Made by a program: the position numbers and the translations under genes | Notes under the pieces: generated by a model | What the model saw: the letters and a program-made list of their open reading frames with translations, nothing else | Databases searched by the model: none | Told to the model about the DNA's origin: nothing | Shown here: positions 18,167 through 52,434 of the stretch, one piece after another | How positions within the stretch are numbered: position 1 is the first letter of the stretch | How the letters are laid out: each line of letters starts with the position of its first letter | Origin: Methanobacteriota archaeon | GTDB lineage: Archaea; JAADCQ01; Methanopyri; Methanopyrales; Methanopyraceae | Length of the DNA: 64,000 nucleotides | NCBI GenBank assembly: GCA_027064425.1 | Contig: JAMOPO010000015.1 | Coordinates: 64,001 to 128,000, forward strand | Direction of reading: 5' to 3'

Positions 18167-20059
18167 TTGAGCTGGTGGAGGGCGGCGGTACCCCTCCTCG
18201 CCGCGGTGCTGCTGTGCCTCGGGTCGGGCCAGGCGCTGCAGGTTCAGTGGCAGGTGACGCTGGACCAGGCCATGCAGTGGAACGAGCAGGAGAAGAAGTG
18301 GACCGACCAGTCCGTCGCCTCCCGCGACGGGTACTACTACCAGATCCGCGGCCCGGCCGTGGCCACGGACGGTGACGTGGTCCTCGTCGCCTGGGAGGAG
18401 TGGTCCGAGGGCGGAACCACGGTCGGCAGGATCGGGCTGAAGGCCGTGGATACCGGTGGTCAGGTGGTGGGGGAGGCCACCGTCAACCCCGATGAGAACT
18501 GCGTGATGTTCGGGCCGGCGCTGGCCAGCTACGGTCGGGGCGAGTTCCTGCTGGCGGTCGCCGAGGTGCCGTCGGACAAGCTTCAGACCCAGGATTACGG
18601 GACGCTGAAGGTGTACAAGGTGACCGTGGCGAACGGCCAGGTGACCTGCAACCCGGTGAACGTCACCGCGAGCAACGGCGCCTACCCGTACCTGGTCCAC
18701 CTGGGCCGGGACGCGTCCGGTAACGAGTACGTAGCGCTCCTGTACGAGTCCTGGTCGCCCGACTCCGGCGCGGGCGACGTCGTCCTGCAGGTGCTGAAGA
18801 TCGACACGTCGGGCAACGTGACCGCCCTGTGGTCGACCCCGCTGACGGTCGCTAAGGGCGTGTGCAAGGACTACGTGAAGGACAACGTCCACTACTTCGG
18901 TCACGCGCGGCCGGTGGCCTCGGTGTACCGCGACGGCGGTAGCGAGTACCTGATCGTGGCGCTGACCGACTACTCGAGCGCGACGCCGAACATCTCGAGC
19001 TGGGGCTTCTTCGGCGAGTGGCGGGGCTGCAAGGTCCGCGCGTTCGTGATCCAGCTGCCAGGTGACCTGTCCGAGCTGGAGCGGAGTCAGCCGAGCGTGA
19101 TCGAGGTCCAGGGCAGCCTCACGCTGATCAACGACACGAACGAGCTGCCGTGGGTCGCGGACAACGTGATCGTGTACCGGGCCGGCCCGCTCTGGGGCAG
19201 CATGAGCGCCTCGGACACGACGCCGGACATCTACGCGGCCGTCATCGAGAATGAGGGCGGTCAGTGGGTCTTCAAGTGCGACCGGCCCGTGTACCGGCGG
19301 ATCTACACGCAGACGGCCCCGTGCGTGGTCCATGTGTACAATGACACCAGCGGCGGTCGCTATTACCTGGTGGTGTTCTCGGACAACAGCGGCGGGTTCG
19401 GTAAGGAGCGAATCGCCGGGGTCCTGCTGAGGTACAAGAGCGGCCGGCTGCAGGTGCTGGCCCAGTACGACCTGACGGGGTACGGGAACGGCGTGTACTT
19501 CTACTGCCCGACGGCGGCCGCGGTGGCGACGGAGTACGGTAACGCCGAGGTGGCGGTGACGTTCTACAAGGGCGACTCAGGGTACGGTGGGCACAAGATC
19601 GGCGACGTGGTCGTCGACCTGGCGGTGATCGGCGAGCCGGTCGAGGAGATGGCTTCCTGGGTGGAGCAGCTCGTCTCGGAGCTGGAGCGGACGCGCGTGG
19701 ACCTGCAGCAGGGTCTGAAGAACGTGCAGCGCGACCTGAAGAGCACCAAGAAGGAGCTGGACAGCGTCAAGCAGGACGTCGACAAGGTGAAGCAGGATCT
19801 CCAGGGTGTGCGGAGCAAGGTGAGCGATCTCGAGAAGAAGGTGAAGGACGTCGAGAGCCGGATCAGCGGCGTGGAAAGTGAGATCCAGGGCGTCAAGAGC
19901 GAGGTGAAGAGCGTGAAGGAGGAGGTGAGCGGCGTGAAGGGCAAGGTGGAGAGACTGGAGGGGCGAGTGAGCAAGCTGGAGCGGCGCAAGATTCCGGTGG
20001 CCGGTGCGGTGGCGCTGCTGTCACTGATCGCCGCGCTGGCGGCGCGCCGGCGGCACTAG
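18167..20059 (+). CDS. Secreted beta-rich surface protein with coiled-coil stalk and C-terminal IPV-TM-RRR anchor
   Basis: Signal peptide; heptad repeats near C-terminus; tail RRKIPVAGAVALLSLIAALAARRRH. Confidence 0.85.
   Translation: MSWWRAAVPLLAAVLLCLGSGQALQVQWQVTLDQAMQWNEQEKKWTDQSVASRDGYYYQIRGPAVATDGDVVLVAWEEWSEGGTTVGRIGLKAVDTGGQVVGEATVNPDENCVMFGPALASYGRGEFLLAVAEVPSDKLQTQDYGTLKVYKVTVANGQVTCNPVNVTASNGAYPYLVHLGRDASGNEYVALLYESWSPDSGAGDVVLQVLKIDTSGNVTALWSTPLTVAKGVCKDYVKDNVHYFGHARPVASVYRDGGSEYLIVALTDYSSATPNISSWGFFGEWRGCKVRAFVIQLPGDLSELERSQPSVIEVQGSLTLINDTNELPWVADNVIVYRAGPLWGSMSASDTTPDIYAAVIENEGGQWVFKCDRPVYRRIYTQTAPCVVHVYNDTSGGRYYLVVFSDNSGGFGKERIAGVLLRYKSGRLQVLAQYDLTGYGNGVYFYCPTAAAVATEYGNAEVAVTFYKGDSGYGGHKIGDVVVDLAVIGEPVEEMASWVEQLVSELERTRVDLQQGLKNVQRDLKSTKKELDSVKQDVDKVKQDLQGVRSKVSDLEKKVKDVESRISGVESEIQGVKSEVKSVKEEVSGVKGKVERLEGRVSKLERRKIPVAGAVALLSLIAALAARRRH
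19680..19990 (+). repeat. Heptad (coiled-coil) repeat region, imperfect 21-bp periodicity
   Basis: LKNVQRD/LKSTKKE/LDSVKQD/VDKVKQD/LQGVRSK/VSDLEKK/VKDVESR/ISGVESE/IQGVKSE/VKSVKEE/VSGVKGK. Confidence 0.75.
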
Positions 20060-21616
20060 CGGTGCGACGGGGATCACCTTGGGCTTCCGCGGTTTCTTCT
20101 CCCCTCCCGCCGGTGCCGTCCTCTTCTTGTGGCTCACCTCGGTCCTCTGGGCCGTCTTGCTAACCTTCCCGCTCACCTTCTTCTCGGACCCGGACTCCAC
20201 GGCCTCAGCTCCCTCGGCGGCTCCGGTTTCTACGCGGCTCGGCTGATTAGTGCCGTAGTACAGGTCCGGTCGCAGGTACGCCTCGAGCGCCCTCATGGCG
20301 TACGATGTCGCCCAGATCGAGGCGGGCTCGTAGGAGGCCCCCTCGGCGGTGCTCGTGACGTTCCTCGCCGGCCAGGGCCACCCGCCGTACCACTCCGGGT
20401 GTCCCAGCCTCAGGGCGTCCTCGCGCCACTGCTGGGAGACTAGCCACGCGATCGTGGCGTGCACGTTGTACTCCGGGTCCGTGATCAGGTCCGCCAGCCT
20501 GCGCTCGCCTCCGGGGGTCTTGACCGGCACGTCCGCGCCCACGTTGAACCAGATCGCCTTGAGGACGGCCAACCGGAGCACGTTGGCCGTGACGGTGGTC
20601 TCCGGTGATCCCTGGGCCTCGAGGTAGGCCGCTGAGTACGCCCAGGCCGGGCCCCTGCCGAGCTCCGTCTGGACCCACGTGACGCCCGCCTTGTCCGAGT
20701 TGAACAGCCACTGCAGGCCCAGCTTGATGGCCTTCAGTATCCGATCCTCGCTCACGTTCAGGCCGAGCCGATCGGCCAGCCGGTAGACGTCGATCAGCGT
20801 TGAGAGCACGTAGGCCTGGGTGTCGGCCGAGTACTCCTGGCACATCAGGCCGGAGTACCAGGAACCGTCCTCGTTCTGGTTCCTCAGCAGCCACTCGACG
20901 CCGCGCTCGACGGCCCTCTTGACGCGCTCGACGAGGTCCGAGGGAAGTCCCAGCTCGCTCCGGCGCTGCAGGACCTCGAGCAGGGCGGAGACGGCCGCCG
21001 CCGTGTGCCACGCGGAGCCCTCCTTGGACTCCTCCTTCTTCCTGCTCCATCCGCCGTCCTCCAGCTGCTCGTCCAGGAGCCAAACCACCGCCCGCTTGAC
21101 CGCGTTGAGGACCTCGGGAGAGTCACCACCGATCCTGAGGAGCAGCCGGATCCCGGCGGCGGTGTCGGACGTTTGGCTGCCGGAGTGCACGATCCCGCGG
21201 TAGGCCCAGCCGACCCCCCAACCGCCGTCCTCGTTCTGGTTCTCAACCGCCCACCTGACGGCCGCCCGCAGGGCCTCCCGCCACTCCCGCTGGGGCGGCT
21301 CGGCCGGGACTCCGTCCGGCGCGCGGTCCGGTAGCAGGCCCATTTCATCCGCCAGGTGCAGCGCCGGGCACGCCAGGCAGATGGACTTCAGCTCGTAGTT
21401 GAACGTCGGCTTCCACAGGTGCTCACTGGGCAGGTACCAGCCGCCCTTGTCCGCCGGCACGAACCACCAGACGGCTCCCGCCTCGATGGCCCCCCTGCAG
21501 GACCCGGACAGCCGCTGGTAGGCGCCGGTTTTCGTCCAGTCCAGAGCCAGGCCGGGGGTAAGCTGGGCGAGCAGGGCCGCGAGCAGGATCGCGACGGGGC
21601 GGCTCAGCGCGGTCAC
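20021..21616 (-). CDS. Secreted prenyltransferase/squalene-cyclase-repeat (alpha-alpha barrel) protein
   Basis: Signal peptide; QW-type repeats WAVENQNEDGGW, WLLDEQLEDGGW, WLLRNQNEDGSW; Pro-rich/basic tail. Confidence 0.85.
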   Translation of the reverse strand: MTALSRPVAILLAALLAQLTPGLALDWTKTGAYQRLSGSCRGAIEAGAVWWFVPADKGGWYLPSEHLWKPTFNYELKSICLACPALHLADEMGLLPDRAPDGVPAEPPQREWREALRAAVRWAVENQNEDGGWGVGWAYRGIVHSGSQTSDTAAGIRLLLRIGGDSPEVLNAVKRAVVWLLDEQLEDGGWSRKKEESKEGSAWHTAAAVSALLEVLQRRSELGLPSDLVERVKRAVERGVEWLLRNQNEDGSWYSGLMCQEYSADTQAYVLSTLIDVYRLADRLGLNVSEDRILKAIKLGLQWLFNSDKAGVTWVQTELGRGPAWAYSAAYLEAQGSPETTVTANVLRLAVLKAIWFNVGADVPVKTPGGERRLADLITDPEYNVHATIAWLVSQQWREDALRLGHPEWYGGWPWPARNVTSTAEGASYEPASIWATSYAMRALEAYLRPDLYYGTNQPSRVETGAAEGAEAVESGSEKKVSGKVSKTAQRTEVSHKKRTAPAGGEKKPRKPKVIPVAPLVPPARRQRGDQ

Positions 21617-21669
21617 CCCCGAAACCTTAATTTCAGCGGCGTTTCCGGCCGGTCACCCGGGGTTAAGTT

Positions 21670-24600
21670 GTGATACAAGTAGTTTCAGCTTTGCTTTTGG
21701 CGCTTTTAGTGGTCCAGTCCCCCGTTTCCGCCGCTCCCGTCGGACCCGTGGAAATCACGATCTTCGGGAACGCGGCTAAGGGGTCGCCCGAGGAGGTCAA
21801 GCTGGTGGAGGAGACCGTCTACTCCGACCTCGGGATTCGGGTCAAACTGCACGTTCACAACGTGCTGGTGAGCTGGGGCGACCAGAGCGCGCCGGTGGAC
21901 TTCGACGCGCTGGCACGGGACATCGAACGGTCGCAGATCGTCGTGCTCGACAACATGGGCCCGCTACCGGGACCGTTCGTGGAGGAGCTCTCCTCTCGGG
22001 TGCTCGGCCACCCGGTGACCGACGTCTCGAGCTTCTTCCGCGAGCTGGCGCGGCGGAAGCGGCTCGTCGCCTGCGTGACGGGTGACCAGCACGACTTCAT
22101 CCTCCTCGGCCCCGGGTGCCGCAGAATCTGCGACAACACGGCCGCGGTCGCCAACTTGGGCTTCCTGTTCCGGTTCTCGGACTCGCTGGTGCCGGTGGTG
22201 GAGTACCTGCTGTGGCTCGCGTACCCGGACGTGCCCGCGGAGCGGCTTCGCCTCTCCTCCATCCGCGTCTCCTTCGTGGCCGCCTATGTGCCCGGTCGGG
22301 GATGGGTGTTCCCGGAGGTTTCCGGCGCCGAGCTGGAGCGGGCGTACCACGAGTGGCTCCGCAGGCTGGAGTCGGGCCGCGGTGGGGGGCTGTGGTTCGA
22401 GGTTAGGATGGCGATCCTGCCGTCCTGGGTCAGGGGGTTGCGCGAGCGCTGCCTGGGCTTCCTCAAGGGATTGAATCTGCCGACACGCCGGCTGGTGGTC
22501 GTGCTGGACTACGTCGACGCGCTGTACAAGGGTGAAGCGGACCTGGTGGTCCGGATCGTGGAGGCCGTTCGGAGCGAGCTGGAGCGGGCCGGCCTGAAGG
22601 ACGTGGGCGTCATCGCCCTGCTCTGCGACGGGAACGTGGTCTCCCCGGTGGACTACCAGGGGACCGGGCTCCTGCAGGAGCTCAGGCGCCTGGGCTACGA
22701 GGTGGCCGCGGTGGTCTCCCTGTGGGCGTTCACGATGAACTACCCGGACTCGGCCGCGTGGGCGCTCATGGAGCTCGACGCGCCCGTGATCAAGGTCGTG
22801 TATCCGTTCTGGGCCGACTGGCTCTGCGAGCCGTGGCGCTACCTGAACATGGAGCGGGGCTCGCCCGACACTGGGCTCACCGGGGCCGTGTTCGAGTGGA
22901 GCTACCAGGTGGTCGGCGGGCCCGAGCTGGAGGGCGCGTTCTGGTTCAAGCTGTGCGCGCTGAAGCGGACCGGGGAGATGCGGCTCCTGCCACTGCGGGA
23001 CGTGATCGAGGATCTCGCTCGGTTAGTCACCGGGTTCGTGCGGCTCCGTTACCTGCCGGAGTCGAGGAAGCGGGTCGCGTTCATCCTCTACTGCTACCCG
23101 CCGGGCCGGGACGCGATCGGCGCCTCGTACCTGGACGTTTTCCGGTCGCTGATCAACGTCCTAACGGCCATGGTCGAGCGGGGGTACGACCTGGGTCCGG
23201 CGACCCCGTTGTTCCGCACGTTGGCGGAGCTGCGGCGCCGGGATCCCGGGGCGGCTGAGGAGTTCGAGGAGCGGCTGGCTCACGCCCTGATGGAGGCCGC
23301 GGACCTGGTGCTCAAGAACGTGGGGCCGTGGGCGAAGGGTGAGCTCGCGGAGATGGTCCGGCTGTACCGGGGTGGGCGCGCCGAGCGCGTGATCCGCTGG
23401 AGGTCGGGCGAGATGAGGGTCACCGTAGAGGGCGGGCGAGTGGTCTGGGTGGACGTGGACGGGCGCTCCTACGTGCTCGGCACGGTCGGGCCGGACCAGC
23501 TGGTGCCCGTGGAGGAGCTCGAGCGGTGGTATCGGGAGGACGTCCTCCCCCGGTTCCGGTACTACCTGTCCCTGCTGCAGGGTGACGATGAGCGGGTGCG
23601 GCGGGCGCGGGAGTCGCTTGAGCGGTGGATGAGGGCGGTGGAGCGCTGCTTCGGGCCGCCGACGGACAACAGGGGGATCATGCGGTGGGGCCGGCACTAC
23701 GTCATCCCGGCGCTCAGGCTGGGCAACGTGGTGATCATGCTGCAGCCCGTCAGGGGGTGGTCGGGCTCCCCGGAGCTCGTGTACCACTCGCCGGACCTGC
23801 CGCCGCAGTGGCAGTACATCGCCGCGTACGAGTGGCTGCGCCGCGTGTTCCGGGCGGACGCGGTGGTGCACGTGGGCACGCACGGGACGCTGGAGTGGTT
23901 GCCGGGACACCAGGTGGGGCTGCTGGGCGTGGACTGGTCGCACCTGCTCCTACCCGACGTCCCGCACTTCTACATTTACATCGTCAGTAACCCGGGCGAG
24001 GCCATGGTCGCCAAGTACCGATCCGGCCCCGTCCTCCTCACGCACCTCCCACCAGCCTGGAGCTACTTCCGCGACTTCAAGAGGTACGGCAGGCTGTGGC
24101 GCGAGATCACGCACTACCTGCAGCTGCGGATGATCGGTGGAGACCCGAGGGTGATGGGGGAGATCCGCAGGCGGATCGTGGAGGAGGCGGAGCGCCTGGG
24201 ACTGCTGCGGACCGTGGTCGACGCGATCCTGTCGGAGCAGGGTGGTGGTACGGCTCAGGACCCGAGGCGGTGGGCGCTTGAGCACTTCGACGAGTTCGTG
24301 GACAAGCTGCACGACTTCCTGCTGGAGCTGGCGCTGAGCAACGTGGCGTACGGGCTCCACGTGTACGGTCGGGATCCGGACCCGGAGGTCGCGCTGGAGG
24401 AGGCGAGCGCGCTAGCCTCCTCGATGATCAAGGTCAACGCCGTCTTCGCTTACTACGCGGGGCTGATCGGGTACCCGGACCCGGGCGAGCTGGAGCGGTT
24501 CCGGGCGGAGCGTCCCGACGAGTTCGTGACGTTCAAGACTCGACTCCGGGAGTGCCTCCGGCGGATCCTTTCCGAGGTCATCCGAGACCCCGTCCTAGTC

Positions 24601-27192
24601 CAGGCCCTCGACGAGTACGTCCGCTGGAAGGACCTGCAGGACTACTACGGCTGGAGGCCCGCCGTTAGCAACCCTGCGACCAAGGTGTTTTGGAAGGTCG
24701 CGTCCAGGCTGGTGGAGATCGCCGAGCGCGCGGTCCGTGCCACGTTCGGGGCGGTCCGGGAGGACGACAGTCACGCGCACCTGCTCGCGGAGGCCGTGGC
24801 CACGCTTTACCGGATCTACGTCCACTACCTGCGCTCAGGGAGCGAGGAGCTCGAGAACCTGCTGCGGGGCCTGGACGGCCGCTTCGTCCCGCCCGGCCTG
24901 CTGGGCGAGCCGATGTGGAACCCGGCCGTGCTGCCCACGGGTCGCGACGGGTACCCGATTGACCCCAGCATGCTGCCGACGCCGACGGCCTGGGAGGTGG
25001 CCAAGCGGCTCGTGGACGAGTTCCTGGCGCGGTACTACAGGGAGCATCGCTCCTGGCCGGAGGCCGTCGGTGTGGTGATCTGGGGCGTGCACGAGCTCTG
25101 CACGGGCGGCCTGAACATCGCGATGGTCCTGTACCTGCTCGGCGTCCGTCCGGTTTGGGACCCGGACACGGGCCGGGTGATCGGCGTCGAGCTGATCCCG
25201 CTGAAGGATCTCACGGTGAACGTGGACGGGGTGCCGGTGCGCCGGCCGCGGATCGACGTGGTCGTGTGGGCCGCCCTGCACATGGAGGCGCCTCTGAAGC
25301 TACTCGCCGACGCGTTCTACCTGGTCTCGCACGTGGATGAGCCCCCGGCGTGGAACTACCGCCGGAAGCACTACCTGGAGCTGAAGCCGGTGGTCGTGGA
25401 GGAGCTCAGGAGGAAGGGTCACCCGGCCGAAGAGGCCGAGGAGCTGGCGGACGTGATCGCCTCCAGCGGGTACTTCGCGCAGCCGCCCGGGGTCTTCACG
25501 GGCGCGGGCGCCTCGGACGTCGTGGAGCACGCGTGGACGGACGTGTCCGGCACGGTCGGAGTGCTGGAGAGCGCGAGCGAGGCCCTGCGGGAGTTCCAGC
25601 GGAGGTTCTGGGAGAGGTTCCGGGTGGCCTGTGAGGCGCGGATGGCCTACGTCTACGGAGCGCGGGCGCGAATCGTGATCGTTCGGCAGGGTGAGCGGGT
25701 CCGCGTGATGGTCCTTCGAACCAGCACGGACGAGGTCTACCACGCGATCCCAGCGGTCACCGCGTTCCGCTACCTGATGTCCAAGGTCCAGGCGGTGCTG
25801 CACAGCGTGGTGAACACCTGGGGCCTGATCGACACCGACGACTTCTACGACTGGGTGGGCGGGATGGCCCTGTACGCCACCTTCGCCTCCGGGCGCGCCC
25901 CGGAGGTGTACATCGCCAACGCCATCGACCCGACCGCGGCCAGGACCCTGTCCGCCTTCGAGCAGCTGGCCGGGGAGGTGTACACGAAGCTCCTGAGCCC
26001 GTCCTGGTGGGGGGCGATGCTCGAGCACGGCGACTACGGCTGGTCCCGGATCGCGCGGCGAATCGAGTACCTGGCCGGCTGGGGCGTTACCGTCCCGTCG
26101 ATGAGGCCCTACCTCAACGGGCTGTACACTCGGGTCGCGGGGAAGCTCCTGGAGGAGATCGCGAGACACCCGCCCAGGACGGAGTACGGGTGGGCCGCGG
26201 TCGTGTCCTCGCTGGCCTGGTTCGTGGAGCTGGCGAGAGTGGGCGTCTGGCAGCCGAAGGATAGGACCGTGCTCGCGAAGGTGGCCCGCGCGCTGCTCGA
26301 GGTGATGGCCCGCCACGGGCCGGCCACCTGCCACCACACGAGTCCGAACCCGGCCCTGATCGCGTACAGCGTCCGGACCCTGTTGGAGGCGGGGTACTCG
26401 TACTCCGAGGTGTCCGGGCTGGTGAGTCGGGTGCTGCAGTGGTACCAGCGGCTGGACAACCCGACCATCGTGCAGCAGATCCGGGCCCTGCTACGGGAGG
26501 TTCTACAGCGGTTCGGGGCCGGCACCACCTCCCGGACGTCGGGCCGCTCCACGGTCGCTCGCGCCGGTCGGGCGACCGCGATCAACGCCAGCGGGGTCAG
26601 CGCCCGGGCCCCGGGCGCCTCCGGCCGGGTCGTGAGCGGTGGGCGGGGGGCGCAGGCCCCCGGAGCGGCGCCGAGCTCGGCGGCGTCTGGGGTGGTTTCA
26701 CGGGCCTTAAGGGCCGTGAGGAGCGTCGCTGAGGCAGTCCGGGCGGTGGTCTCATCGCGGAGCTCCGCGGTGCCGTCCGCCGCCGAAGCCGCCACCAGGG
26801 TGATGGCGCGGGTGGTTGGAGGCGGAGCGGCCGGCCCCGCGGGCCGGACGGGCTCGGGTCTGGGTGGTAAGGGCAGGGTGACCGTGGTGGGCGTTCGTGG
26901 CTCCCCGCTCTCGGGCCGGCCGAGCTCTGGGCGGTCGGGGGCGGGCTCAGCCGGGTCCCGGGCGGCCTCGGCCGCCGCGTCGGTCGCGGCCAGGGTGGCC
27001 GCTCGGGCCTCCGCCGAGTCGGCGCGGGCGGTCGCGTCGACGGCGGCGAGGGTGATGTCGAGGGCCGCGTCGCCGGCCTCGGCGTCGTCGAGGAGGATCT
27101 GGGAGTGGGTGCTGGCGCTGCTGCTCACCGCGCTGGTCGTCTGCGGGTGCGTGGCGGCCCGTCGGGTGGGCCCGGTGGGTGCGCGCTGGTGA
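21670..27192 (+). CDS. Extracytoplasmic CobN/Mg-chelatase-H-like protein
   Basis: YCYPPG, IGASYLDV, LQPVRGW, HVGTHGTLEWLPG, NPGEA, LPTGRD, RRPRIDV; signal peptide, A/S/R/G-rich linker, C-terminal TM. Confidence 0.9.
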   Translation: MIQVVSALLLALLVVQSPVSAAPVGPVEITIFGNAAKGSPEEVKLVEETVYSDLGIRVKLHVHNVLVSWGDQSAPVDFDALARDIERSQIVVLDNMGPLPGPFVEELSSRVLGHPVTDVSSFFRELARRKRLVACVTGDQHDFILLGPGCRRICDNTAAVANLGFLFRFSDSLVPVVEYLLWLAYPDVPAERLRLSSIRVSFVAAYVPGRGWVFPEVSGAELERAYHEWLRRLESGRGGGLWFEVRMAILPSWVRGLRERCLGFLKGLNLPTRRLVVVLDYVDALYKGEADLVVRIVEAVRSELERAGLKDVGVIALLCDGNVVSPVDYQGTGLLQELRRLGYEVAAVVSLWAFTMNYPDSAAWALMELDAPVIKVVYPFWADWLCEPWRYLNMERGSPDTGLTGAVFEWSYQVVGGPELEGAFWFKLCALKRTGEMRLLPLRDVIEDLARLVTGFVRLRYLPESRKRVAFILYCYPPGRDAIGASYLDVFRSLINVLTAMVERGYDLGPATPLFRTLAELRRRDPGAAEEFEERLAHALMEAADLVLKNVGPWAKGELAEMVRLYRGGRAERVIRWRSGEMRVTVEGGRVVWVDVDGRSYVLGTVGPDQLVPVEELERWYREDVLPRFRYYLSLLQGDDERVRRARESLERWMRAVERCFGPPTDNRGIMRWGRHYVIPALRLGNVVIMLQPVRGWSGSPELVYHSPDLPPQWQYIAAYEWLRRVFRADAVVHVGTHGTLEWLPGHQVGLLGVDWSHLLLPDVPHFYIYIVSNPGEAMVAKYRSGPVLLTHLPPAWSYFRDFKRYGRLWREITHYLQLRMIGGDPRVMGEIRRRIVEEAERLGLLRTVVDAILSEQGGGTAQDPRRWALEHFDEFVDKLHDFLLELALSNVAYGLHVYGRDPDPEVALEEASALASSMIKVNAVFAYYAGLIGYPDPGELERFRAERPDEFVTFKTRLRECLRRILSEVIRDPVLVQALDEYVRWKDLQDYYGWRPAVSNPATKVFWKVASRLVEIAERAVRATFGAVREDDSHAHLLAEAVATLYRIYVHYLRSGSEELENLLRGLDGRFVPPGLLGEPMWNPAVLPTGRDGYPIDPSMLPTPTAWEVAKRLVDEFLARYYREHRSWPEAVGVVIWGVHELCTGGLNIAMVLYLLGVRPVWDPDTGRVIGVELIPLKDLTVNVDGVPVRRPRIDVVVWAALHMEAPLKLLADAFYLVSHVDEPPAWNYRRKHYLELKPVVVEELRRKGHPAEEAEELADVIASSGYFAQPPGVFTGAGASDVVEHAWTDVSGTVGVLESASEALREFQRRFWERFRVACEARMAYVYGARARIVIVRQGERVRVMVLRTSTDEVYHAIPAVTAFRYLMSKVQAVLHSVVNTWGLIDTDDFYDWVGGMALYATFASGRAPEVYIANAIDPTAARTLSAFEQLAGEVYTKLLSPSWWGAMLEHGDYGWSRIARRIEYLAGWGVTVPSMRPYLNGLYTRVAGKLLEEIARHPPRTEYGWAAVVSSLAWFVELARVGVWQPKDRTVLAKVARALLEVMARHGPATCHHTSPNPALIAYSVRTLLEAGYSYSEVSGLVSRVLQWYQRLDNPTIVQQIRALLREVLQRFGAGTTSRTSGRSTVARAGRATAINASGVSARAPGASGRVVSGGRGAQAPGAAPSSAASGVVSRALRAVRSVAEAVRAVVSSRSSAVPSAAEAATRVMARVVGGGAAGPAGRTGSGLGGKGRVTVVGVRGSPLSGRPSSGRSGAGSAGSRAASAAASVAARVAARASAESARAVASTAARVMSRAASPASASSRRIWEWVLALLLTALVVCGCVAARRVGPVGARW

Positions 27193-27196
27193 TGGG

Positions 27197-28486: not shown

Positions 28487-28530
28487 CACGGCTCCCGCCG
28501 CATCGTTATGATTTTCGTAACGATTCCGGC

Positions 28531-28621
28531 TGGCGCCGGGGCCGGGATTTGAACCCGGGCGGCCCATACGGGCCACGGGATCTCCAATCCCGCGCCTTGG
28601 ACCGGGCTCGGCCGCCCCGGC
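28531..28621 (-). tRNA. tRNA-Ser(GGA), encoded CCA, C at position 8
   Basis: GCCGGGG/CCCCGGC acceptor, CGGGA-TTGGAGA-TCCCG anticodon arm, long variable arm, GGTTCAAATCC; TTTTAA about 30 bp upstream. Confidence 0.95.
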
Positions 28622-28659
28622 GCCTCCGTGCCCGCTCCCCGCCGGCTGGATTAAAACGG

Positions 28660-30564: not shown

Positions 30565-30593
30565 GGAGTAAGCACCATCCCTTTCGCCTCTTC

Positions 30594-35853: not shown

Positions 35854-35931
35854 CCGGCCGCAGCTCAGTCTGGCTAGAGCGCGGGACTGTAGATCCCGTG
35901 GTCCCGGGTTCAAATCCCGGCGGCCGGACCA
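35854..35931 (+). tRNA. tRNA-Tyr(GTA), intronless, encoded CCA, C at position 8
   Basis: CCGGCCG/CGGCCGG acceptor (C1-G72), CGGGA-CTGTAGA-TCCCG, GGTTCAAATCC; TTTTTATATA at about 35817-35826. Confidence 0.96.
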
Positions 35932-37531: not shown

Positions 37532-37535
37532 CCCT

Positions 37536-38531: not shown

Positions 38532-38592
38532 GCGCCGTCCCCCCGGCAGCTTTTTTACCCGAGCTCACCCGCGGGCCCGGGGGTGTGGAGCG

Positions 38593-39669: not shown

Positions 39670-39674
39670 GAGAA

Positions 39675-40094: not shown

Positions 40095-40119
40095 ACCCGG
40101 CCCTAGGGGTCTCACGTCG

Positions 40120-42674: not shown

Positions 42675-42982
42675 CGCTCCCGCCGCTCCTTGAGCTTCTC
42701 GGCGATCATCAGCAGGGTCTTCCGCTTGGACTCCACCTTATCGACGATCAGCCGGCCGCGGTCCTTCCACCAGCTCTTGGGGTACTGCTTGTCCCGCTGC
42801 ACCTCCGGGTTCAGGCCCAGCTCCTCCGCGACCCGCTTGATCTCGCTGAGCCGCGGGTTCCTCACGGCCAGCTTCTTCGGCACCTTCCTACCCTCCGAGC
42901 GCGACCGCTCGGCGTCGAAGTAAACGGGCCAGATCACGACACGGTCCTTGCCCTTCAGCTTGATCGTGGGCGTCTCCGACAT
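42671..42982 (-). CDS. srp19: Signal recognition particle protein SRP19
   Basis: IWPVYFD..RSRSEGRKVP..LAVRNP, YPKSWW, GRLIV. Confidence 0.93.
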   Translation of the reverse strand: MSETPTIKLKGKDRVVIWPVYFDAERSRSEGRKVPKKLAVRNPRLSEIKRVAEELGLNPEVQRDKQYPKSWWKDRGRLIVDKVESKRKTLLMIAEKLKERRER

Positions 42983-44253
42983 CTCGCCCCTCCCCACGGG
43001 AGGGCGGGAATTACCGGGAACTTCTTCCGATTACGATGCCCGGAACCACTCCCGGGCGACCCGGTATTGCCACTCCCGCCCTCCTGACCGGTCTCCGTCC
43101 TTTTACCTCCTCCCTGAGTCCCATGACGATCACCCTGACCGCCCACCTCTCCCGGGCTCTCCCGCCCGGCCCGCTCGCCACCGCTACCGGTGCCCGCGGG
43201 GTTCCCGCCGCCGTGCCCGCCGTGCTTAACGTAGTTTATGGGCACGGAGAGGAGGCGGAGCACCCTCACGTTGACCAGCGGTATCTCGACGATCTGGCCC
43301 CGAAAGGCCAGCTCCGCGAAGGGCTTCCGAACGATGCACTCCACCGGGATCCCGCGCCGGAGGAGCCGTCGCGCGATCTCGAGCACGTCGGAGATCGTTG
43401 AGGCCAGGAAGACGTAGAAGTGTGCACTCAGCCCGCCGCTCAGGCTGACGACCCGGTCGCCGACGAAGAAGGGCAGCAGGTCCTCGGGGACGCCGCTCTC
43501 CGGCACCGGGAACAGCAGCACCGGGACCTCGGCACCGGACTCCTGCAGCGGGTTCGAGACGGCCTCCACGGCCTCCGCGATGTTCAGCTCGAGCGAGTAG
43601 GACGGGACGAGGTAGTAATCCTCCCGCCAGTCGTAGTCCCGGGTCTGGAGCGCGGAGCAGTCCTTCACGATGAAGTACCGCCCGTCGTCCGAGACTCCCG
43701 CGAGCAGGACCGCGTGCATGGCGGGTGGGACGACGACGAACCACTTGCTCACCGCGGCCAGCGGCGCGTAGAGGACGACCCCGAGCCCGTTTGGGCGGTC
43801 CCGGGCTGCGGCCAGCGCGACGAGGGTGGGGAACCATGGTGGCGAGGTGGAGGCCATGGGGCCATCGTAGTACTCGTCCTCGGTCGGGATGCCGGTGACC
43901 CTGGTGAACCAGACCTCACGCCGCTCGAGCGCGAGCGGGGTGACCTCGGATCCCGCGGTGGGCCTCCAGATCCCTTCGGCCACGGCGATGTTGTAGAGGG
44001 TGAGCGCCGCGACCTCGCCGCACCAGGTGTGGTCGGGCCGGCCGTCGCCGTCCACGTCGCGGCCGAACTCGACCTGACCGAAGTCGGGGTTCGCGACCAC
44101 GAACCGGACGTGCGCTGGGTGGAGCAGCCGGACGTCGACGGGGCCCTGAGCCGTCCTCAGCGTGACCGCCGTGATGGTCCAGTCGTACTGCAGGACCTGC
44201 GCGGACGCGGCCGGGCTGGGAAGAAGCAGAAAGGCGATGAGGAGGGTGAGCAC
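42955..44253 (-). CDS. Secreted protein with papain/C39-like peptidase motifs and Pro-rich/basic C-terminal tail
   Basis: Signal peptide; WCGEVA...HAVLLAG...FIVKD; Gly-rich linker; RKKFPVIPALP...RRR. Confidence 0.7.
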   Translation of the reverse strand: MLTLLIAFLLLPSPAASAQVLQYDWTITAVTLRTAQGPVDVRLLHPAHVRFVVANPDFGQVEFGRDVDGDGRPDHTWCGEVAALTLYNIAVAEGIWRPTAGSEVTPLALERREVWFTRVTGIPTEDEYYDGPMASTSPPWFPTLVALAAARDRPNGLGVVLYAPLAAVSKWFVVVPPAMHAVLLAGVSDDGRYFIVKDCSALQTRDYDWREDYYLVPSYSLELNIAEAVEAVSNPLQESGAEVPVLLFPVPESGVPEDLLPFFVGDRVVSLSGGLSAHFYVFLASTISDVLEIARRLLRRGIPVECIVRKPFAELAFRGQIVEIPLVNVRVLRLLSVPINYVKHGGHGGGNPAGTGSGGERAGRESPGEVGGQGDRHGTQGGGKRTETGQEGGSGNTGSPGSGSGHRNRKKFPVIPALPWGGARCRRRPRSS

Positions 44254-44279
44254 GGGGCGCCCCCCAGGGGGTGTGGAGC

Positions 44280-46306: not shown

Positions 46307-46322
46307 GCGGAACACCCCCCGG

Positions 46323-46772: not shown

Positions 46773-46788
46773 CCGACCACCCCCCAGC

Positions 46789-47667
46789 TCACTCTCCCGC
46801 ACTCAGCTCCTCCAACCTCTCCGCAATCTCATCCATCAAATCTTCACCCACCAGCTCCCGACCCGCGATCTCCAGCACCGGCTCCTCCACCACCCGACCG
46901 ACCACCGAGACCGGACACCCACACTCCGAGCACACCCGCAGCACCTCCTCCACGTCGTCCTCCTCCACCACCGCCAGCACGTTGTCCCAGTTCCTTGTAA
47001 TCGACGAGTACGGGACCGAGTCCAGCCGCATCCCCACCCCCGACTTCGCGCACACCAGCGCCGCCATCGCCACCAGACCACCCTTCGTCACGTCCTTCGC
47101 CGCCTTCACCAGCCCCCGCCGCGCCACCTCCGGGAACGCCCGAAACAGCCTCCTGGCCTTCTCCATCCGCTCCTCGAACCCACCGTGGATCGGCTCCCCC
47201 ACGAGCACCACCACGTCCCCCGGCTCCGCCCCCTCATCCGTGATCGGCTCCGGCGCCACCAGCTCCCCCATGATCGTCAACGACACCTTCGGCTCCTCCA
47301 CGTCATCCTCCACCATCGTGTTCCCACCCAGCACCTCCAACCCCAGCTCCCGCGCCTGCCGCCCGATACACTCCGCCGCCTCCAACGCCCCCTCCTCCGA
47401 CGGCGCGATGATCGTGTCCACCACGAACCGCGGCCGCCCACCCACCACCAGCACGTCCGTCGCCGCGTGCACCACCGCCGACCTCCGCACCAGCCGAAAC
47501 GCGTAGGGACCATCCGCGCTCACCACCAGCCCGTCCTCCACGCTCACCACCGCCGCATCATCGAAGTCCGCCAGCCCCACCCGCGCCTCCGACCTCCTCG
47601 GCAGCAACCGCTTCACCACCTTCACGTCATCCACCGCGTACCGCAGCACGTGCTTCCGCAGGTCCAC
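46789..47667 (-). CDS. AIR synthase (PurM/ThiL superfamily)-related protein
   Basis: DDAAV, ATDVLVVGGRP, LGGNT, GAEPGD, AKDVTKGGL, VVGRV. Confidence 0.8.
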   Translation of the reverse strand: MDLRKHVLRYAVDDVKVVKRLLPRRSEARVGLADFDDAAVVSVEDGLVVSADGPYAFRLVRRSAVVHAATDVLVVGGRPRFVVDTIIAPSEEGALEAAECIGRQARELGLEVLGGNTMVEDDVEEPKVSLTIMGELVAPEPITDEGAEPGDVVVLVGEPIHGGFEERMEKARRLFRAFPEVARRGLVKAAKDVTKGGLVAMAALVCAKSGVGMRLDSVPYSSITRNWDNVLAVVEEDDVEEVLRVCSECGCPVSVVGRVVEEPVLEIAGRELVGEDLMDEIAERLEELSAGE

Positions 47668-47928
47668 CCCGACCACCCCCAGACAGTCCCCTGACCGGCA
47701 CGAAACTTGAGTCCTGCCCACGGGGTGGGGCCGGTTCACGGCGGCCGTCCTCGGGGATCGTTATGCGACACGAAACGATTCGCCCCGCAGCCCCGCCGCG
47801 TCATCGCAAGTGCCACCTGTGGAAGGCCGGGCGAGCGCGCTGGTCCCGGTAAGCACGGCGTATCGGGGCACTCCATCGGCCCCTCACCGAGTCCTCAGCG
47901 GGCCTCAGGCATCGAGAGACGCCGACAC

Positions 47929-47972
47929 CTCTCCCCGCAGCGTTAACGGCGCGTCCACACTCAGGAAAACCC
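47929..47972 (+). repeat. Copy 1 of a 44-bp degenerate repeat (copy 2 at 49566-49609)
   Basis: 32/44 identical by hand alignment, core GTTAACGGCGCGT exact. Confidence 0.7.
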
Positions 47973-48070
47973 GCACCGCCCCCGTTCCCCAAGGAGAGTC
48001 TTCACATCGGAGTTGGGTCGGGAAGGGAAGTTAAGGAGATGTTGAGTTAAGCGGCGATCTGGGGGGCGCC

Positions 48071-49114
48071 GTGTTGCTGACTGCGCTGCTAGTCGTGTCG
48101 CTGGTCACGGTTACCAGCGTGACACAGCCCACCGAGGCGTTGACAGTCAATTCGGCGTCCAGGGACTGCCCGCCGTGGGTAGTGCCGGCGCTCTTCGTTC
48201 AGCTGCCTGGAGGAGGCGGTCTCGGATCCCCGAGCCTCACGGGCGACCGTTTCCTGCTCGTGGCACCGCTGTGGCGGGAAGGTGACCACCACCGGGTGAT
48301 CCTCGGCGCGTACGGGGTGGACGAGGTGGTCTTACCGCGGGGAGCGACCGTCCACCGTGTGTTAATTCCGAGCGGGGTGGAGTGGAAGTGGACTGAACTC
48401 TGCAGGCAGGCGGTTCCGCAGGGGCCGTGGCGTGAGGTCCGGTACTCTCTGCGAAAGTCGGACGGGCTGCTCCAGCTTAAGCCGTCGAAGGCCGTGGACA
48501 ACACGTTCGTAGTGGAGGCGAGCCTGCCCGCACGCGGCGAGTGGGTGCGGATCGCGCTGGCGCCGGGTGACTGGCTCGTGGCGCTGGGTTGGAGCATGGA
48601 CTTCAACGTGCTGACGCTGGACGGGAAGGTCCTGTTCCGGGGCCGGCACCCGTACGATGAGGTCGTGTACGACCTGCCGGACGGCGTGCACCTCGCGTTC
48701 TGGGTGCACTGGTACGGGCTGGACTTGAGTGGTGGAGAGAGGTGGACGAGAGTGCCACGCCTCGTAGCTAAGGGTGAAGTACCGAGCGAGTTCAATCCAA
48801 AATGGCAGTACGAGCACGGGCTGTTTTACGGGTACTGCACGGTGCTCGAGGTCCGGACGAGTAAGCCGCTAATCCTGGAGTTTAGAGCGCCGAGGCAAGG
48901 TGAGAAGTTAGAATCCCCCAACGAGCTCGTCGACCGGCGTGAGTTCGTCACGGAGGAGTTCGTGCGCAGCCACCAGTCACATTACGTGCCACCTATCCCT
49001 CCCTCGAAGTTGCTGTACGAAATCCTCAGGGCTCTGCCGGTGCTACCCCTGCTACCGCTCGTCGCTCCCACGGGAAGGCGTGAGGGGGGCCGGCGGAGAG
49101 AAAGGACCGACTGA
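48071..49114 (+). CDS. Secreted hypothetical protein with Pro-rich/basic tail
   Basis: Signal peptide; tail RALPVLPLLPLVAPTGRREGGRRR. Confidence 0.7.
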   Translation: MLLTALLVVSLVTVTSVTQPTEALTVNSASRDCPPWVVPALFVQLPGGGGLGSPSLTGDRFLLVAPLWREGDHHRVILGAYGVDEVVLPRGATVHRVLIPSGVEWKWTELCRQAVPQGPWREVRYSLRKSDGLLQLKPSKAVDNTFVVEASLPARGEWVRIALAPGDWLVALGWSMDFNVLTLDGKVLFRGRHPYDEVVYDLPDGVHLAFWVHWYGLDLSGGERWTRVPRLVAKGEVPSEFNPKWQYEHGLFYGYCTVLEVRTSKPLILEFRAPRQGEKLESPNELVDRREFVTEEFVRSHQSHYVPPIPPSKLLYEILRALPVLPLLPLVAPTGRREGGRRRERTD

Positions 49115-49565
49115 CTGCCGGCTCCGGCGAGCCTGGCGCGACCCCCTTTCCGCTTGCAGAGGCTTCCTGAGCGTCGGTACCAAAGCGGCCTGGGCGCCAG
49201 GCGGACGCACCACCGGGTTCTTCTTACTCCCGCACGGGTTCCTCCCGTCGCCGGCGCACTTGCGTTTGCGGATTGATGGAAGTGACGTGAAATCGCACCG
49301 CGTATGGCGAGGGAATAGCCGTTACCGGGTGGCCCTCGGCATGCGCGAGGGGAGGGAGTTGACCCTACCTCCAATCTGCGGGTTCGCGGACCGTTTCTAG
49401 TATCCGTTTTGCTTACGAGGTTGAGAGCTCTCTCGACCCAGTACCTAAGACTGAACTAACTTTAGGTTGCGCGCTCTCAACGGTTCCTCAATGAGGCAAC
49501 GTGCCACGGATCATTATTATCGATCCGTATTCGTGGGGCTTTGCGACGTACAGGGTCCCGTAGCG

Positions 49566-49609
49566 CTCCTCTCGTAGTGTTAACGGCGCGTTTACGCTCC
49601 GGCGAATCC
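49566..49609 (+). repeat. Copy 2 of the 44-bp degenerate repeat
   Basis: Aligns with 47929-47972. Confidence 0.7.
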
Positions 49610-49742
49610 ATGCGATCTTCATTTTTCGCGGAGAGTTGGTGCCGGGGACGAGGGGACGGAGGCCTTCCCAGTCCTCACCCTCGCAGCTCGGTTTTCCCTG
49701 TGTGAGGCGAGCGTGGGAAGGTGATGCTCGGGGGAGCAGACG

Positions 49743-51380
49743 ATGGCCCGAGCCCTGCTGGTTCTACTAACCCTGGCGGCGGTCGCGACCCCCGCTTCGG
49801 GTGCCACCATCCTCCTACCGGACCTCGTGGGCCAAGCCATCGCGTTGGAGAAGGAGGGGCTGAGGCACGCCACCCCGGTGGCCACGAGAGGGCTCGTCGA
49901 ACGCTTCAACACGCTCGAGAATCTGGCCGTCGACTACGAGTATATATCAACCCCAGACCACCATGATCTCATCATCTTCTGCGGCGAGGTTCGCGTGAGG
50001 ATTACACCCGAAGAGGTCCGCGTAGAGTACTCGACCCAGCGTGGACCGGTCCGGCGCTCGCTATCCCTCAACCCCGAGCACACTTACCTCGTCCTCTCCC
50101 CGCAGGGCCTCCGTACGATCCCAGTCACACCACAGCATAGAGGCAAAGAACTCCCCATCCTCATCATTCGCGGCGGCCGAGCTTACGAGCCCACCACGTA
50201 CCTCCCGTCCTTCATCCTCGGGGACTACGCCGAGAACGTCACCCCACTCGACCAGGCCGTCGGACTCATGGGTGACTGGGACCTCCTCGTCCGGCTGAAG
50301 ATCGAGGGTGAGACCGTCGCCTTCGACCTCGTGAGGTCGGACGGCTCGGGCGCCTACCGCGTCGTCTGCGACCTAAGAACGGGGAGCGCCTGGCGCGAGC
50401 CCCTGCCGCCCGGGGAGGCCCGGAGGCTCCTCGACCTCGCCCGCGAGGACCTCGCCAAGCTCCACAAGCTGAAATCCGGCGAGCTCGAGAGCGAGCCGGG
50501 GCTACGACTGATCGTCTACGACGCCACCGAGGGCAGGGTCCTCCTGGAGCTCGCGCGCCCCTCCCTAAGGTTCATCCGGGAGTGTAACCCGCGTCTCGCA
50601 GGACTCCTCGAGCTCCTTCAACAAATTAGGATGGAGAGGCTCATCAAGTGGGATCTCCTCCAGCTCTCCCTCCGGGCTCACGAGCTCCAGGACCTCCTCG
50701 AGAGCGCGGGGCTCGCGAGCACGAGGGCGATCCGGTGCCTCCTGCACCCGGAGCTCGTCCTGGGGTCATACCTCCTCACGGCCGGTCTTGGACTTGCGGC
50801 CTTCCTGCCCTGGATCGAGCTGCTGAAACGCTTCCCGCGGCTAGGCGAGGCGCCCGAGTTCAGGTGGGAACCTTCGACCCTCCTTGAGTACGCGGAGCGC
50901 CTAGTGTACGCGGGGACCCTCTGCGGCGTAGAAGCCGCTTATCGGGTGTGCTGTAAGGTCGCCGTCGAGGTCCTACTGCGTGCCTTGGGGCTCTGGGATT
51001 ACGCGATGAACGGTAAAGTCCTAGAGCTCACGGGCTGCATTGTCTGGGCTCCGCTGTTCGAGGAATCGACGAAGCGGTTGATGAGTGCGCTCACCGGACT
51101 GCCACGATGGCTTGTGGGGCTCTGGTACGGGCTGTTAGAGGCCGTAGAATGGCGTGAAATCTGGCCGGGCGAGCTGAAACCTGTGAGGGTAGTCTGGAGG
51201 GTCATCGATCACATCGCGTACTCGGTCCTTCCGCTGCCACTCGGTGCGCTCCTGCACTCGCTTTGGAACGTGATAAGCGACCTCGGAGGCGAGATCCTCG
51301 AGTACTGGCCCGGAGTGCTTGGCATGACGCTCGCCGCACTTGGAGCACTGGTGGAGAACGCGCTGACTGGGGTGTGGTGA
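49743..51380 (+). CDS. Secreted-domain fusion to PrsW/CPBP-like intramembrane protease
   Basis: Signal peptide; C-terminal TM region with PLFEESTK, YGLLE, DH and LLHSLWN motifs. Confidence 0.72.
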   Translation: MARALLVLLTLAAVATPASGATILLPDLVGQAIALEKEGLRHATPVATRGLVERFNTLENLAVDYEYISTPDHHDLIIFCGEVRVRITPEEVRVEYSTQRGPVRRSLSLNPEHTYLVLSPQGLRTIPVTPQHRGKELPILIIRGGRAYEPTTYLPSFILGDYAENVTPLDQAVGLMGDWDLLVRLKIEGETVAFDLVRSDGSGAYRVVCDLRTGSAWREPLPPGEARRLLDLAREDLAKLHKLKSGELESEPGLRLIVYDATEGRVLLELARPSLRFIRECNPRLAGLLELLQQIRMERLIKWDLLQLSLRAHELQDLLESAGLASTRAIRCLLHPELVLGSYLLTAGLGLAAFLPWIELLKRFPRLGEAPEFRWEPSTLLEYAERLVYAGTLCGVEAAYRVCCKVAVEVLLRALGLWDYAMNGKVLELTGCIVWAPLFEESTKRLMSALTGLPRWLVGLWYGLLEAVEWREIWPGELKPVRVVWRVIDHIAYSVLPLPLGALLHSLWNVISDLGGEILEYWPGVLGMTLAALGALVENALTGVW

Positions 51381-51385
51381 GGTAC

Positions 51386-52434
51386 ATGGGGGCCGGCGCT
51401 CCTCTTACCTCATCCTAGGGCTGTTCCTAGCGCTGGCCCCAGCTTCAGGGAAACCGCTGATCCTGGGGAGTCTCTCGGAGGACTTGAAGCTCCTGCAGGG
51501 GTACTTCCGAAATCAAGTCCTGCCCAAGTGGAGGGATGACCCGCGCGTGATCGTGGACGTCACGCAATACTCGGAGTCGCCAGCGAGGTGGGCGGTTTAC
51601 GTACCAAAGAAGGACCTTTTCGTGTACATGTTCGTGCCCTCGAGGATGCGGACGTCGGTTGAACCGGGGCGCGTTCAGGTGGTGCTTCCACCGGTGACGG
51701 GCGGGAGACCCGTCGTGGTAGAGGAGCGTTTGGAGAGCCCGGCGGTGGTTGTGAGCGTGGATCAATTCTGCCCACTGGCGAGCGCGTCCTTAGACGTCGT
51801 GGTGGGGGACCATGTGTGCAGCTTCCTCCGCATTGATGTTCCCGTGCTCGGAGGCCCTTGCTCGGTCGAGTACGTCCTCACCCTGAGGGTTGGGGACCGG
51901 ATGGTCGACGAGGAGGTTCTGAAATCGTTCGACCCGGTGGATGTGGAGTACGCGGTGTACCCGGACCGGGTGGTCATGAGGATATTCGGGATCCCGGAAG
52001 GGGTTGAGGACCGAGCGCTCGTCATCAACGCGACGTTCGACCTCCGGCGTGACAGGATCCTCGTTGAGCGCTGGGAGAGTGCGGACCCGAGGCTGATCTC
52101 CAGGCTGCGCGAGCTGAAGAGGAAGTGGGCCACGCCCCCTGAGGAAGGGATCGCGGAGTTCTTCGGTGGATTACTGCGCGAGCGCTCCGGCGTGAAGCCC
52201 CTCTTGGTGGGCTTCCAACTACCGCACGACGACCCGCTGGTGCGGTTCGTCGAGAAGGTAGTCAGGATGTACAACCAGGGCGCCGGTGAGGAGGAACTCC
52301 AGAAGGCCATGGAAGAGCACCCGAACGTCGAGTTCCTGTTCCCGAAAAAGGGTGCAAAGGAAGCTTCGAGGTTCCCAGTGTGGATGCCACCACTGCCACT
52401 AGTGCCGCAAGTGGGTCGCCGGAACAGCGCCTGA
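51386..52434 (+). pseudogene. Secreted protein gene frameshifted in a G5 run just after the ATG (or intact if sequencing error)
   Basis: SD GGTGAGGT then ATG 51386; one extra G joins it to RRSSYLILGLFLALAPASG signal peptide and ORF 51484-52434; tail SRFPVWMPPLPLVPQVGRR. Confidence 0.65.

Follow-up and report, generated by a model that had tools for sequence, protein, structure and literature searches.

A lineage-specific, sorting-type C-terminal tail with helical and proline-rich forms on predicted secreted proteins of Methanopyrus

The window analyzed here is a stretch of 64,000 nucleotides of a Methanopyrus genome (G000:C15:64001-128000), with a guanine-cytosine (GC) content of 63-71%. It hosts five open reading frames (ORF1 to ORF5; Table 1) whose products share a C-terminal tail composed of a Pro-Val motif, a hydrophobic or proline-rich tract and a cluster of arginines. 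A first-pass annotation had proposed that five unrelated secreted proteins end in this way, and most of its description holds. All five tails that it quoted are present, four of them with a few extra residues ahead of the stop. Each ORF begins with a hydrophobic segment ending in a signal-peptidase-like site, and the bodies fall into five separate clusters at 30% identity over 150 amino acids. As it had also noted, three of the tails follow a linker or stalk (ORF1 to ORF3), and the coiled-coil stalk of ORF1 spans approximately residues 495-608. Close homologues of the window proteins bear Methanopyrus names. Those of ORF2 were found only in Methanopyrus or unnamed records, and the next relatives are squalene cyclases at approximately 30% identity, so that no outside homologue with a known CTERM signal is available for comparison.

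The annotated start of ORF5 had to be corrected, as the ATG at 51386 lies in a different frame from the rest of the gene. The signal h-region (51406-51450) is in frame, and no ATG, GTG or TTG precedes it. The frame is the same in independent related contigs, which makes an error of assembly unlikely; an ATC at 51412 is not conserved in three related runs. ORF5 may use a non-standard start codon or may recently have lost its start. ORF1 and ORF2 converge and their 3' ends overlap by 39 nucleotides, so that the ORF1 tail, read on the opposite strand, encodes the last five residues of the ORF2 tract and the Arg cluster that follows them. Convergent pairs with sorting tails on opposite strands of the same 39-66 nucleotides occur, besides window positions 20021-20059, on contigs C9, C10, C43 and C55 of G000 and in L004 and L005 (L numbers designate individual loci or contigs from relatives). 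Among the five further genomes of the genus (G001 to G005), the tail-on-tail overlap is conserved in G001 and G002, as in G000, and is missing from the G003 orthologue.

Table 1. Tail-bearing genes, their tails and tRNA genes in the window (window coordinates)
Feature	Position	Strand	Description
ORF1	18167..20059	+	630 aa; signal peptide, body without known family, coiled-coil stalk, helix-form tail
ORF1 tail	19994..20056	+	PV, 17-residue hydrophobic tract, RRR; helix form
ORF2	20021..21616	-	531 aa; signal peptide, prenyltransferase/squalene-cyclase-like repeat body, charged linker, short tail
ORF2 tail	20033..20071	-	9-residue tract with 4 Pro, Arg cluster; 20021-20059 dual-coding with ORF1 tail
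ORF3	42955..44253	-	432 aa; signal peptide, body without known family, Gly-rich linker, short tail
ORF3 tail	42970..43017	-	11-residue tract with 3 Pro, Arg cluster
ORF4	48071..49114	+	347 aa; signal peptide, body without known family, Pro-rich tail
ORF4 tail	49037..49081	+	13-residue tract with 4 Pro, RR
ORF5	51406..52434	+	signal h-region to stop; frame open from 51367
ORF5 tail	52375..52422	+	14-residue tract with 5 Pro, RR
tRNA gene	28534-28621	-	Rfam
tRNA gene	35854-35928	+	Rfam

About 50 of the 1,556 predicted proteins of G000 end in xPVxP, an uncharged tract and an Arg cluster, and nearly all of them have signal peptides. Genes were called with a codon-score heuristic (1,588 genes, 1,556 with a stop) and signal peptides with hydropathy heuristics. 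The tally combines 44 matches to our main rule (PV, uncharged tract, RR) with six manual additions; the rule was formulated after the tails had been seen, and it includes some false positives. The 50 proteins reduce to 42 at 85% identity and to 30 clusters at 30%, and 28 of them are encoded on the five large contigs. When applied to G000, the rule recognized 44 of 1,556 C-terminal windows compared to 10 of 4,990 internal windows. The annotation had expected a hidden Markov model (HMM) of the tail to match mainly C-termini. With seeds from G001-G005 only, 19 of 20 matches in G000 scoring at least 10 bits lie within 20 residues of the C-terminus, and 24 of 29 do so at 6 bits or more; many of these matches are orthologues of the seeds, and the test is not fully independent. 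The 32 rule matches used as seeds were reduced to 29 tails by removing a sortase target, a mis-cut duplicate and a non-PV membrane protein. A self-seeded HMM was set aside as circular (2 of its 21 seeds were mis-cut).

The tracts range from 9 to 18 residues and take two forms, a long one of 15-18 residues that can form a helix and a short, proline-rich one of 9-14 residues. When the short form is searched by composition alone, it is found at 17 of 1,341 C-termini and in 7 of 7,810 internal windows (p = 8e-10). An N-terminal hydrophobic segment is present in 16 of these 17 proteins, one of the 17 being a false positive, and in 188 of the 1,324 others. The same segment occurs in 33 of the 34 complete tail proteins of the curated G000 set. 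The Arg cluster lies at or near the C-terminus; it belongs to the search rule and is weak in a few members. Only 5 of 26 tail-protein bodies tested match Pfam (GH114 twice, peptidase M28, a squalene-cyclase-like domain and FG-GAP).

For comparisons across the genus, a looser rule was applied to G000 and to the loci fetched from relatives. It returned 122 matches, from which 26 single-member families were discarded as noise, leaving a curated set of 96 tails (89 unique) in 45 families; G001-G005 were sampled for this set through loci rather than read whole. All six genomes of the genus contain the tail, with 8-27 matches per genome at E<=10 to a model seeded from these same genomes. Outside the genus, 295-395 archaeal genomes yielded no convincing C-terminal match, although a model of 24-31 positions would miss diverged versions. 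A mixed model gave single weak matches in 2 of 295 genomes. One is an internal helix within a 552-codon frame; the other, which stops approximately 24 residues short of the end of its 171-codon frame, has the look of an antisense shadow. Three matches of a short-form model in 395 genomes were also rejected, as the frames that contain them, of 54-143 codons, continue for another 38-102 residues before the stop. This distribution bears out the suggestion of a lineage-specific signal on secreted proteins.

Among the 89 unique tails, 39 tracts have at least 15 residues and are by length compatible with a transmembrane helix, 30 have at most 11 and are too short for one, and 20 are intermediate. 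The annotation had seen mostly short proline tracts in place of a transmembrane helix. This short form is genuine and under selection as protein, but the helix form is just as common genome-wide (23 tracts of at least 15 residues compared to 15 Pro-rich and 6 intermediate in the 44 curated G000 tails). Both forms start with Pro-Val at positions 1 and 2, and Pro recurs at position 4 in 18 of 30 short and 30 of 39 long tracts. Past position 4 the composition diverges: short tracts have 38% Pro, 21% Val and 14% Leu, and long tracts 4% Pro, 33% Leu and 30% Ala. Two or more prolines past position 4 are found in 24 of 30 tracts of up to 11 residues, in 10 of 20 tracts of 12-14 residues and in none of the 39 longer ones. 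Overall, Pro content falls as the tract lengthens (rho = -0.62, one tail per family, n = 45). The two forms replace one another between orthologues. In one group the tract is an 18-residue helix in G000, has 14-15 residues in G001 and G002, and is Pro-rich with 10 residues in G004 and 9 in G005, yet the body of the G000 protein is closest to those of G004 (83% identity) and G005 (81%). Paralogue pairs at 35-37% identity likewise exchange forms, and a 36%-identical paralogue of ORF3 bears the helix.

We compared codon changes in the tails and in the ten codons ahead of them. The 289 tail codons show 92 synonymous and 63 non-synonymous differences, and the 190 upstream codons 21 and 134, respectively, over 19 non-independent pairs, 15 of which belong to the ORF5 family. 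Synonymous changes thus predominate in the tail, unlike upstream of it, and the tails are conserved as protein. Identical or nearly identical tails occur on unrelated bodies across genomes, which suggests that they move between proteins as cassettes. These data bear on the view that neither form is processed, and that the tails are permanent or degenerate anchors whose short form is a by-product of decay or of gene overlap in a 68% GC genome. Seven of 37 Pro-rich tails, including that of ORF2, do overlap the antisense tail of a convergent gene, and several G002 tails are shortened without Pro. For the other 30 tracts, however, no partner tail lies on the opposite strand, and in G003 the ORF2 orthologue keeps the motif in the absence of overlap. 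Together with the predominance of synonymous changes, the conserved motif and the intact enzyme described below favour processing, and we hold this view to be very unlikely. As general sources of short tails we rejected both antisense artefacts, which account for these seven tails at most, and frameshift debris, as inspection by eye of the other frames of the 37 tails revealed no hidden helix tail.

A scan for internal copies of the tail identified three families in which a second h-region and an AxA-type site follow directly on a short tract with its Arg cluster, in the same frame and with no stop between them; the regular expression also matched two polytopic proteins among 1,248 sequences. 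In family A the fused layout is retained by 8 of 8 homologues at 29-87% identity (one each in G000, at C15:231209-233488, and G001, two in G005 and four on metagenome contigs that share one assembly prefix). In three of them the tract is longer, at 17 residues, and six of the eight have an N-terminal hydrophobic segment, with L210 and L211 examined over their first 110 codons only. Family B is fused in both members (G000 C15:258390-261188 and G001 L215). Its first half is a homologue of ORF5 (32% identity over 352 amino acids) and ends in register with the ORF5 tail, so that ORF5 corresponds to the first half of a polyprotein encoded elsewhere in G000. Its second half is 41% identical to a stand-alone secreted protein, starting directly past the signal peptide of the latter. 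Family C is a single G001 protein, and its second half is 25% identical to the orthologue group with swapped tracts. The second halves of families B and C match stand-alone secreted proteins. In L205 no ATG, GTG or TTG occurs within 14 codons ahead of the Arg cluster, and candidate internal starts vary among the homologues.

According to the positive-inside rule and the topology of signal-peptidase substrates, the Arg flank of a signal peptide is cytoplasmic. Provided that the second segment does act as a signal peptide, the arginines flanking it lie inside while the first domain lies outside, and the intervening tract of 10-13 residues must cross the membrane. The predicted topology of the fused proteins thus implies that the short tract is membrane-crossing, possibly as an extended strand resembling polyproline II. 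With the standard rise per residue of the two conformations, 9-11 residues would span 14-16 A as a helix and 28-34 A as polyproline II, compared to 22-27 A for the long tracts as helices. In a structure model of the polyprotein the junction has a predicted local distance difference test (pLDDT) score below 50, and fold searches with the model were uninformative.

The short tract could instead be exported completely, or never insert. Only the helix form would then be a substrate of an archaeosortase, and the short form would attach itself outside to a partner, to the wall or to lipid head groups, either by docking as a PxxP-type peptide or through a basic amphipathic patch. Polyproline ligands have prolines spaced at positions 1, 4 and 7, and these positions are Pro in 12, 9 and 9 of 12 nine-residue tracts. 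The high cost of inserting Pro-rich tracts into the membrane points the same way, as does the frequent adjacency of short-tail and helix-tail genes. Against a docking role, orthologues exchange the two forms, and the Arg cluster of the fused proteins is at the same time the n-region of the second signal and would be inside while the first domain is outside. We regard a docking role as unlikely.

We then compared the tail with described sorting signals. The closest likeness is to PGF-CTERM and ArtA of Haloferax volcanii (PMC6098224, PMC7157517). There too a motif, a hydrophobic tract and a basic tail occur on many unrelated secreted proteins, one Cys-Arg-His enzyme is involved, PssA and PssD are present, and a strain-specific gene fusion (HVO_0405) has made a signal internal. 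The Methanopyrus tail differs from PGF-CTERM in its xPVxP motif, in its many Pro-rich tracts of 9-14 residues and in an archaeosortase that reaches 30.3 on the ArtA model (cut-off 75). The best tail scores 15.5 on the PGF-CTERM model (cut-off 24.5). Unlike HVO_0405, moreover, the Methanopyrus fusions are kept across 29% identity and continue into a second signal peptide.

VPXXXP-CTERM with ArtB and PIP-CTERM with ArtD, as their models are described, also have a Pro motif abutting the tract, a restricted lineage and a small archaeosortase. In contrast to VPXXXP, the PVxP of Methanopyrus leaves two residues between the prolines and not three. None of 37 tails matched either model at E<=1, although the presence of both models in the library was not confirmed. 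At this threshold eight of the tails touch MYXO-type models and two each JDVT, PEF and PGF. When 16 helix tails were scored singly, three barely passed TIGR03382, lacking its Cys, and none passed PGF, PEF, JDVT or TIGR03901. The helix followed by RRR recalls MYXO-CTERM (GC_trans_RRR) and its CPBP-family sortases (bioRxiv 10.1101/2023.06.07.544157), but Methanopyrus tails lack the invariant Cys of MYXO- and JDVT-CTERM, and no Rce1-like (CPBP) gene (PF02517) was found in G000, which is 99% complete. Apart from one misplaced TG, they also lack the TG motif and the spacer ahead of the helix that characterize LPXTG signals. According to the same preprint, signals cut by membrane-embedded enzymes typically have no spacer between motif and tract, unlike LPXTG; Methanopyrus tails are tripartite, with the motif directly abutting the tract. 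As the annotation had supposed, no existing archaeal CTERM model covers the tail, within the limit given for the PIP and VPXXXP models.

All described signals of the tripartite class are said to have a transmembrane helix (bioRxiv 10.1101/2023.06.07.544157 among the sources), and 'Methanopyrus' does not occur in the main text of that preprint (its Table 1 and supplements lay outside the check). A designed polyproline-II helix aligns across the membrane (Kubyshkin 2018, as cited in PMC6862034); that span is a model peptide, whereas the Methanopyrus tracts are natural, rich in Pro, Val, Ile and Leu, and of predicted conformation. The topology predicted for the fused junctions also has a viral parallel. 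Viral structural polyproteins combine a stop-transfer segment, a basic loop and an internal signal peptide; in Methanopyrus the gene is archaeal and chromosomal, and a short Pro-rich tract would take the place of the stop-transfer segment. Literature searches, judged by titles and the openings of abstracts, returned nothing on this tail, nothing linking Methanopyrus kandleri, CTERM and sorting signal, and nothing on polyproteins with an internal signal peptide and an archaeosortase; Haft 2012 and its supplement, which potentially name the Methanopyrus enzyme or the helix form, were not covered. These comparisons indicate that the tail is a real, lineage-specific sorting-type signal that is predicted to work like PGF-CTERM and lies outside every named system tested. 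The helix-bearing form alone resembles known signals; what is new is the interchangeable helix-free form together with the conserved fused precursors.

To find a candidate processing enzyme, we inventoried G000, where the archaeosortase family is represented by a single gene (C57:74023-74508), as are the sortases, the rhomboids and the PrsW family. The archaeosortase gene is single-copy in all six genomes of the genus, and its Cys64, Arg106 and His125 are invariant in all six. It passes the family signature TIGR04178 (41.3 bits, cut-off 23) and PF09721 (35, cut-off 25.7) and fails every named subfamily, including, besides ArtA, ArtB (15.9, cut-off 150) and ArtD (20.2, cut-off 125). The nearest outside cluster among 1.84 billion proteins scores 65 bits, against 307. 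Two of its three nearest outside relatives score best on the ArtB model or on the family signature, and a structure model (pLDDT 81) has no PDB match at E<=0.001. The gene lies in a housekeeping neighbourhood. By architecture and by elimination, the archaeosortase is the likeliest processing enzyme, and beside the tail it is best read as a private enzyme with a private signal. The claim of an uncharacterized system thus stands insofar as no named CTERM system fits, but the likely enzyme belongs to a known family.

If the single rhomboid were the enzyme instead, as an analogue of rhombosortase, the proline-rich tracts would be natural targets, since rhomboids prefer helix-breaking substrates. 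One rhomboid is present in all six genomes, it adjoins a tail gene in G004 and lies 901 nucleotides from one in G000 (51 of 1,273 genes are as close), and Gly-Gly linkers precede many tails; no GlyGly-CTERM match was listed for the 37 tails at E<=1. Adjacency is nonetheless limited to two of five loci examined: the rhomboid has no tail gene nearby in G001 and G002, over 14 kb, or in G003, over 8 kb. Rhomboids are also found in 14 of 14 control genomes, the signature is Pro-based as in PEP and PGF signals, and no substrate would be evident for the archaeosortase. A rhomboid enzyme is in our judgement distinctly unlikely.

Linkage of the tail proteins to pseudomurein by a class E-like sortase appears highly improbable. 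A single sortase does occur in all six genomes, and a specific sortase E gene cluster is present in, and restricted to, pseudomurein archaea (PMC11915815). The neighbour of the Methanopyrus sortase, however, ends in Y[KR]TG, a spacer, a helix and Arg in 5 of 6 loci and would be its own substrate. Of the 96 curated PV tails a single one contains TG, and there it lies where the tract ends on the inner side. Of the two attachments that the annotation had allowed, the assignment to an archaeosortase would favour lipid rather than pseudomurein. In Haloferax, processing by ArtA depends on PssA and PssD (PMC7157517). Both are present in Methanopyrus, directly beside the sortase cluster, not the archaeosortase.

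Two further candidates were rejected. The Pfam PrsW gene lies 47 kb from the nearest tail gene. The window gene at 49743-51380 (+) encodes a signal peptide, a soluble domain and a polytopic domain, with motifs at 51048-51077 and 51255-51269 that we take, by eye, to be PrsW-like. It has five matches in G000 and is variable and sometimes broken across the genus; as an enzyme it was discarded, having no Pfam or NCBIfam match, being multi-copy and sometimes broken, and not being found in G003.

Taken together, the data are consistent with the following course. The protein is exported through Sec by its N-terminal signal peptide, the one step seen directly in the sequence. The tail, with its xPVxP motif, a tract that would cross the membrane and arginines clustered on the cytoplasmic side, would stop transfer with these arginines inside, as the fused proteins support. 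By analogy with Haloferax ArtA, the single archaeosortase would then cleave at or near PVxP, and the new C-terminus would be lipidated, probably with archaetidylethanolamine made through PssA and PssD. The long form would cross as an ordinary helix of 15-18 residues. The short form, with 9-14 residues rich in Pro, Val, Ile and Leu, cannot form a spanning helix and would most likely be extended and polyproline-II-like, an already unwound substrate that the translocon or the enzyme holds only briefly. In the fusions, a short tail joined to the signal peptide of the next gene would give a precursor that yields two surface proteins. We consider it fairly probable that the tail is, as a whole, such an archaeosortase-type signal with two interchangeable forms, a short form that crosses extended, and fused precursors. 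It may further be that an extended Pro/Val/Ile tract of 9-11 residues constitutes a natural non-helical span, serving as both stop-transfer and enzyme substrate, freely swapped with a helix and allowing polyproteins to be split by signal peptidase and archaeosortase into two anchored proteins. This last proposal is tentative, and we judge it somewhat more likely to fail than to stand.

Several observations weigh against this scheme. Between the archaeosortase gene and the tail gene closest to it lie 67 kb, far more than for the rhomboid in G000, and the sortase and rhomboid share its presence in 6 of 6 genomes. As these six genomes make up the whole GTDB class and phylum, the pairing of enzyme and signal cannot be profiled. 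The equation of Cys64, Arg106 and His125 with the ArtA triad is inferred from invariance and not from an alignment with ArtA. Insertion would cost approximately +7.5 for Pro-rich and +3.0 for long tracts (biological hydrophobicity scale); a lasting, unaided anchor is therefore unlikely, and a transient segment held by protein, then cut and lipidated, fits best. Six of 30 short tracts are not Pro-rich, whereas 10 of 20 tracts of 12-14 residues are, which argues for a continuum with no fixed 30 A span. The Arg cluster is weak in some short tails (ORF3 orthologues). Finally, family A was not found in G002-G004, and at the fused junctions of L206 and L212 an ATG whose ribosome site matches at 5 of 7 positions is a possible internal start.

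Other features were recorded in the window and elsewhere in these genomes. Very large proteins with a signal peptide, linkers, a C-terminal helix and a basic stretch ending in Trp are encoded at 21670-27192 (+) of the window, where the product is CobN/Mg-chelatase-like, and at C15:216806-223174 and C57:147772-152127 of G000. Such genes adjoin tail-bearing genes, and their products may form secreted modules that take up metals or tetrapyrroles and are anchored in a third way. The sortase gene (L002:374-1821; G000 C27:139669-147330) adjoins in 5 of 6 loci a Gly/Ala-rich protein with the Y[KR]TG tail, which no NCBIfam model matched; pssD and pssA are directly upstream of the cluster, and a second Y[KR]TG tail occurs in L066. 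The non-coding spacer after ORF4 (49115-49742) recurs, with 80-90% conservation, in paralogous cassettes on C50 and C53. A repeated family of small basic proteins (window 53241-53825 (-); G000 C15:244022, C26:11308 and C48:1204) adjoins several variable clusters of tail genes and is possibly linked to their mobility. At the gathering score, an Rfam scan of the window found no family beyond the two tRNA genes.

The tail flags approximately 3% of the Methanopyrus proteome as probable surface proteins and gives a likely job to an unnamed archaeosortase subfamily. An orthologue series that runs from an 18-residue helix to a 9-residue Pro tract would show what the translocon and the sorting enzyme really require, and the swapped tails are ready test substrates for how archaeosortases bind and cut. 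The fused proteins would yield a long, detectable C-terminal fragment, the type of reporter that first proved cleavage by ArtA. If the short tract does cross the bilayer extended, it would be a natural counterpart of designed polyproline membrane spans.

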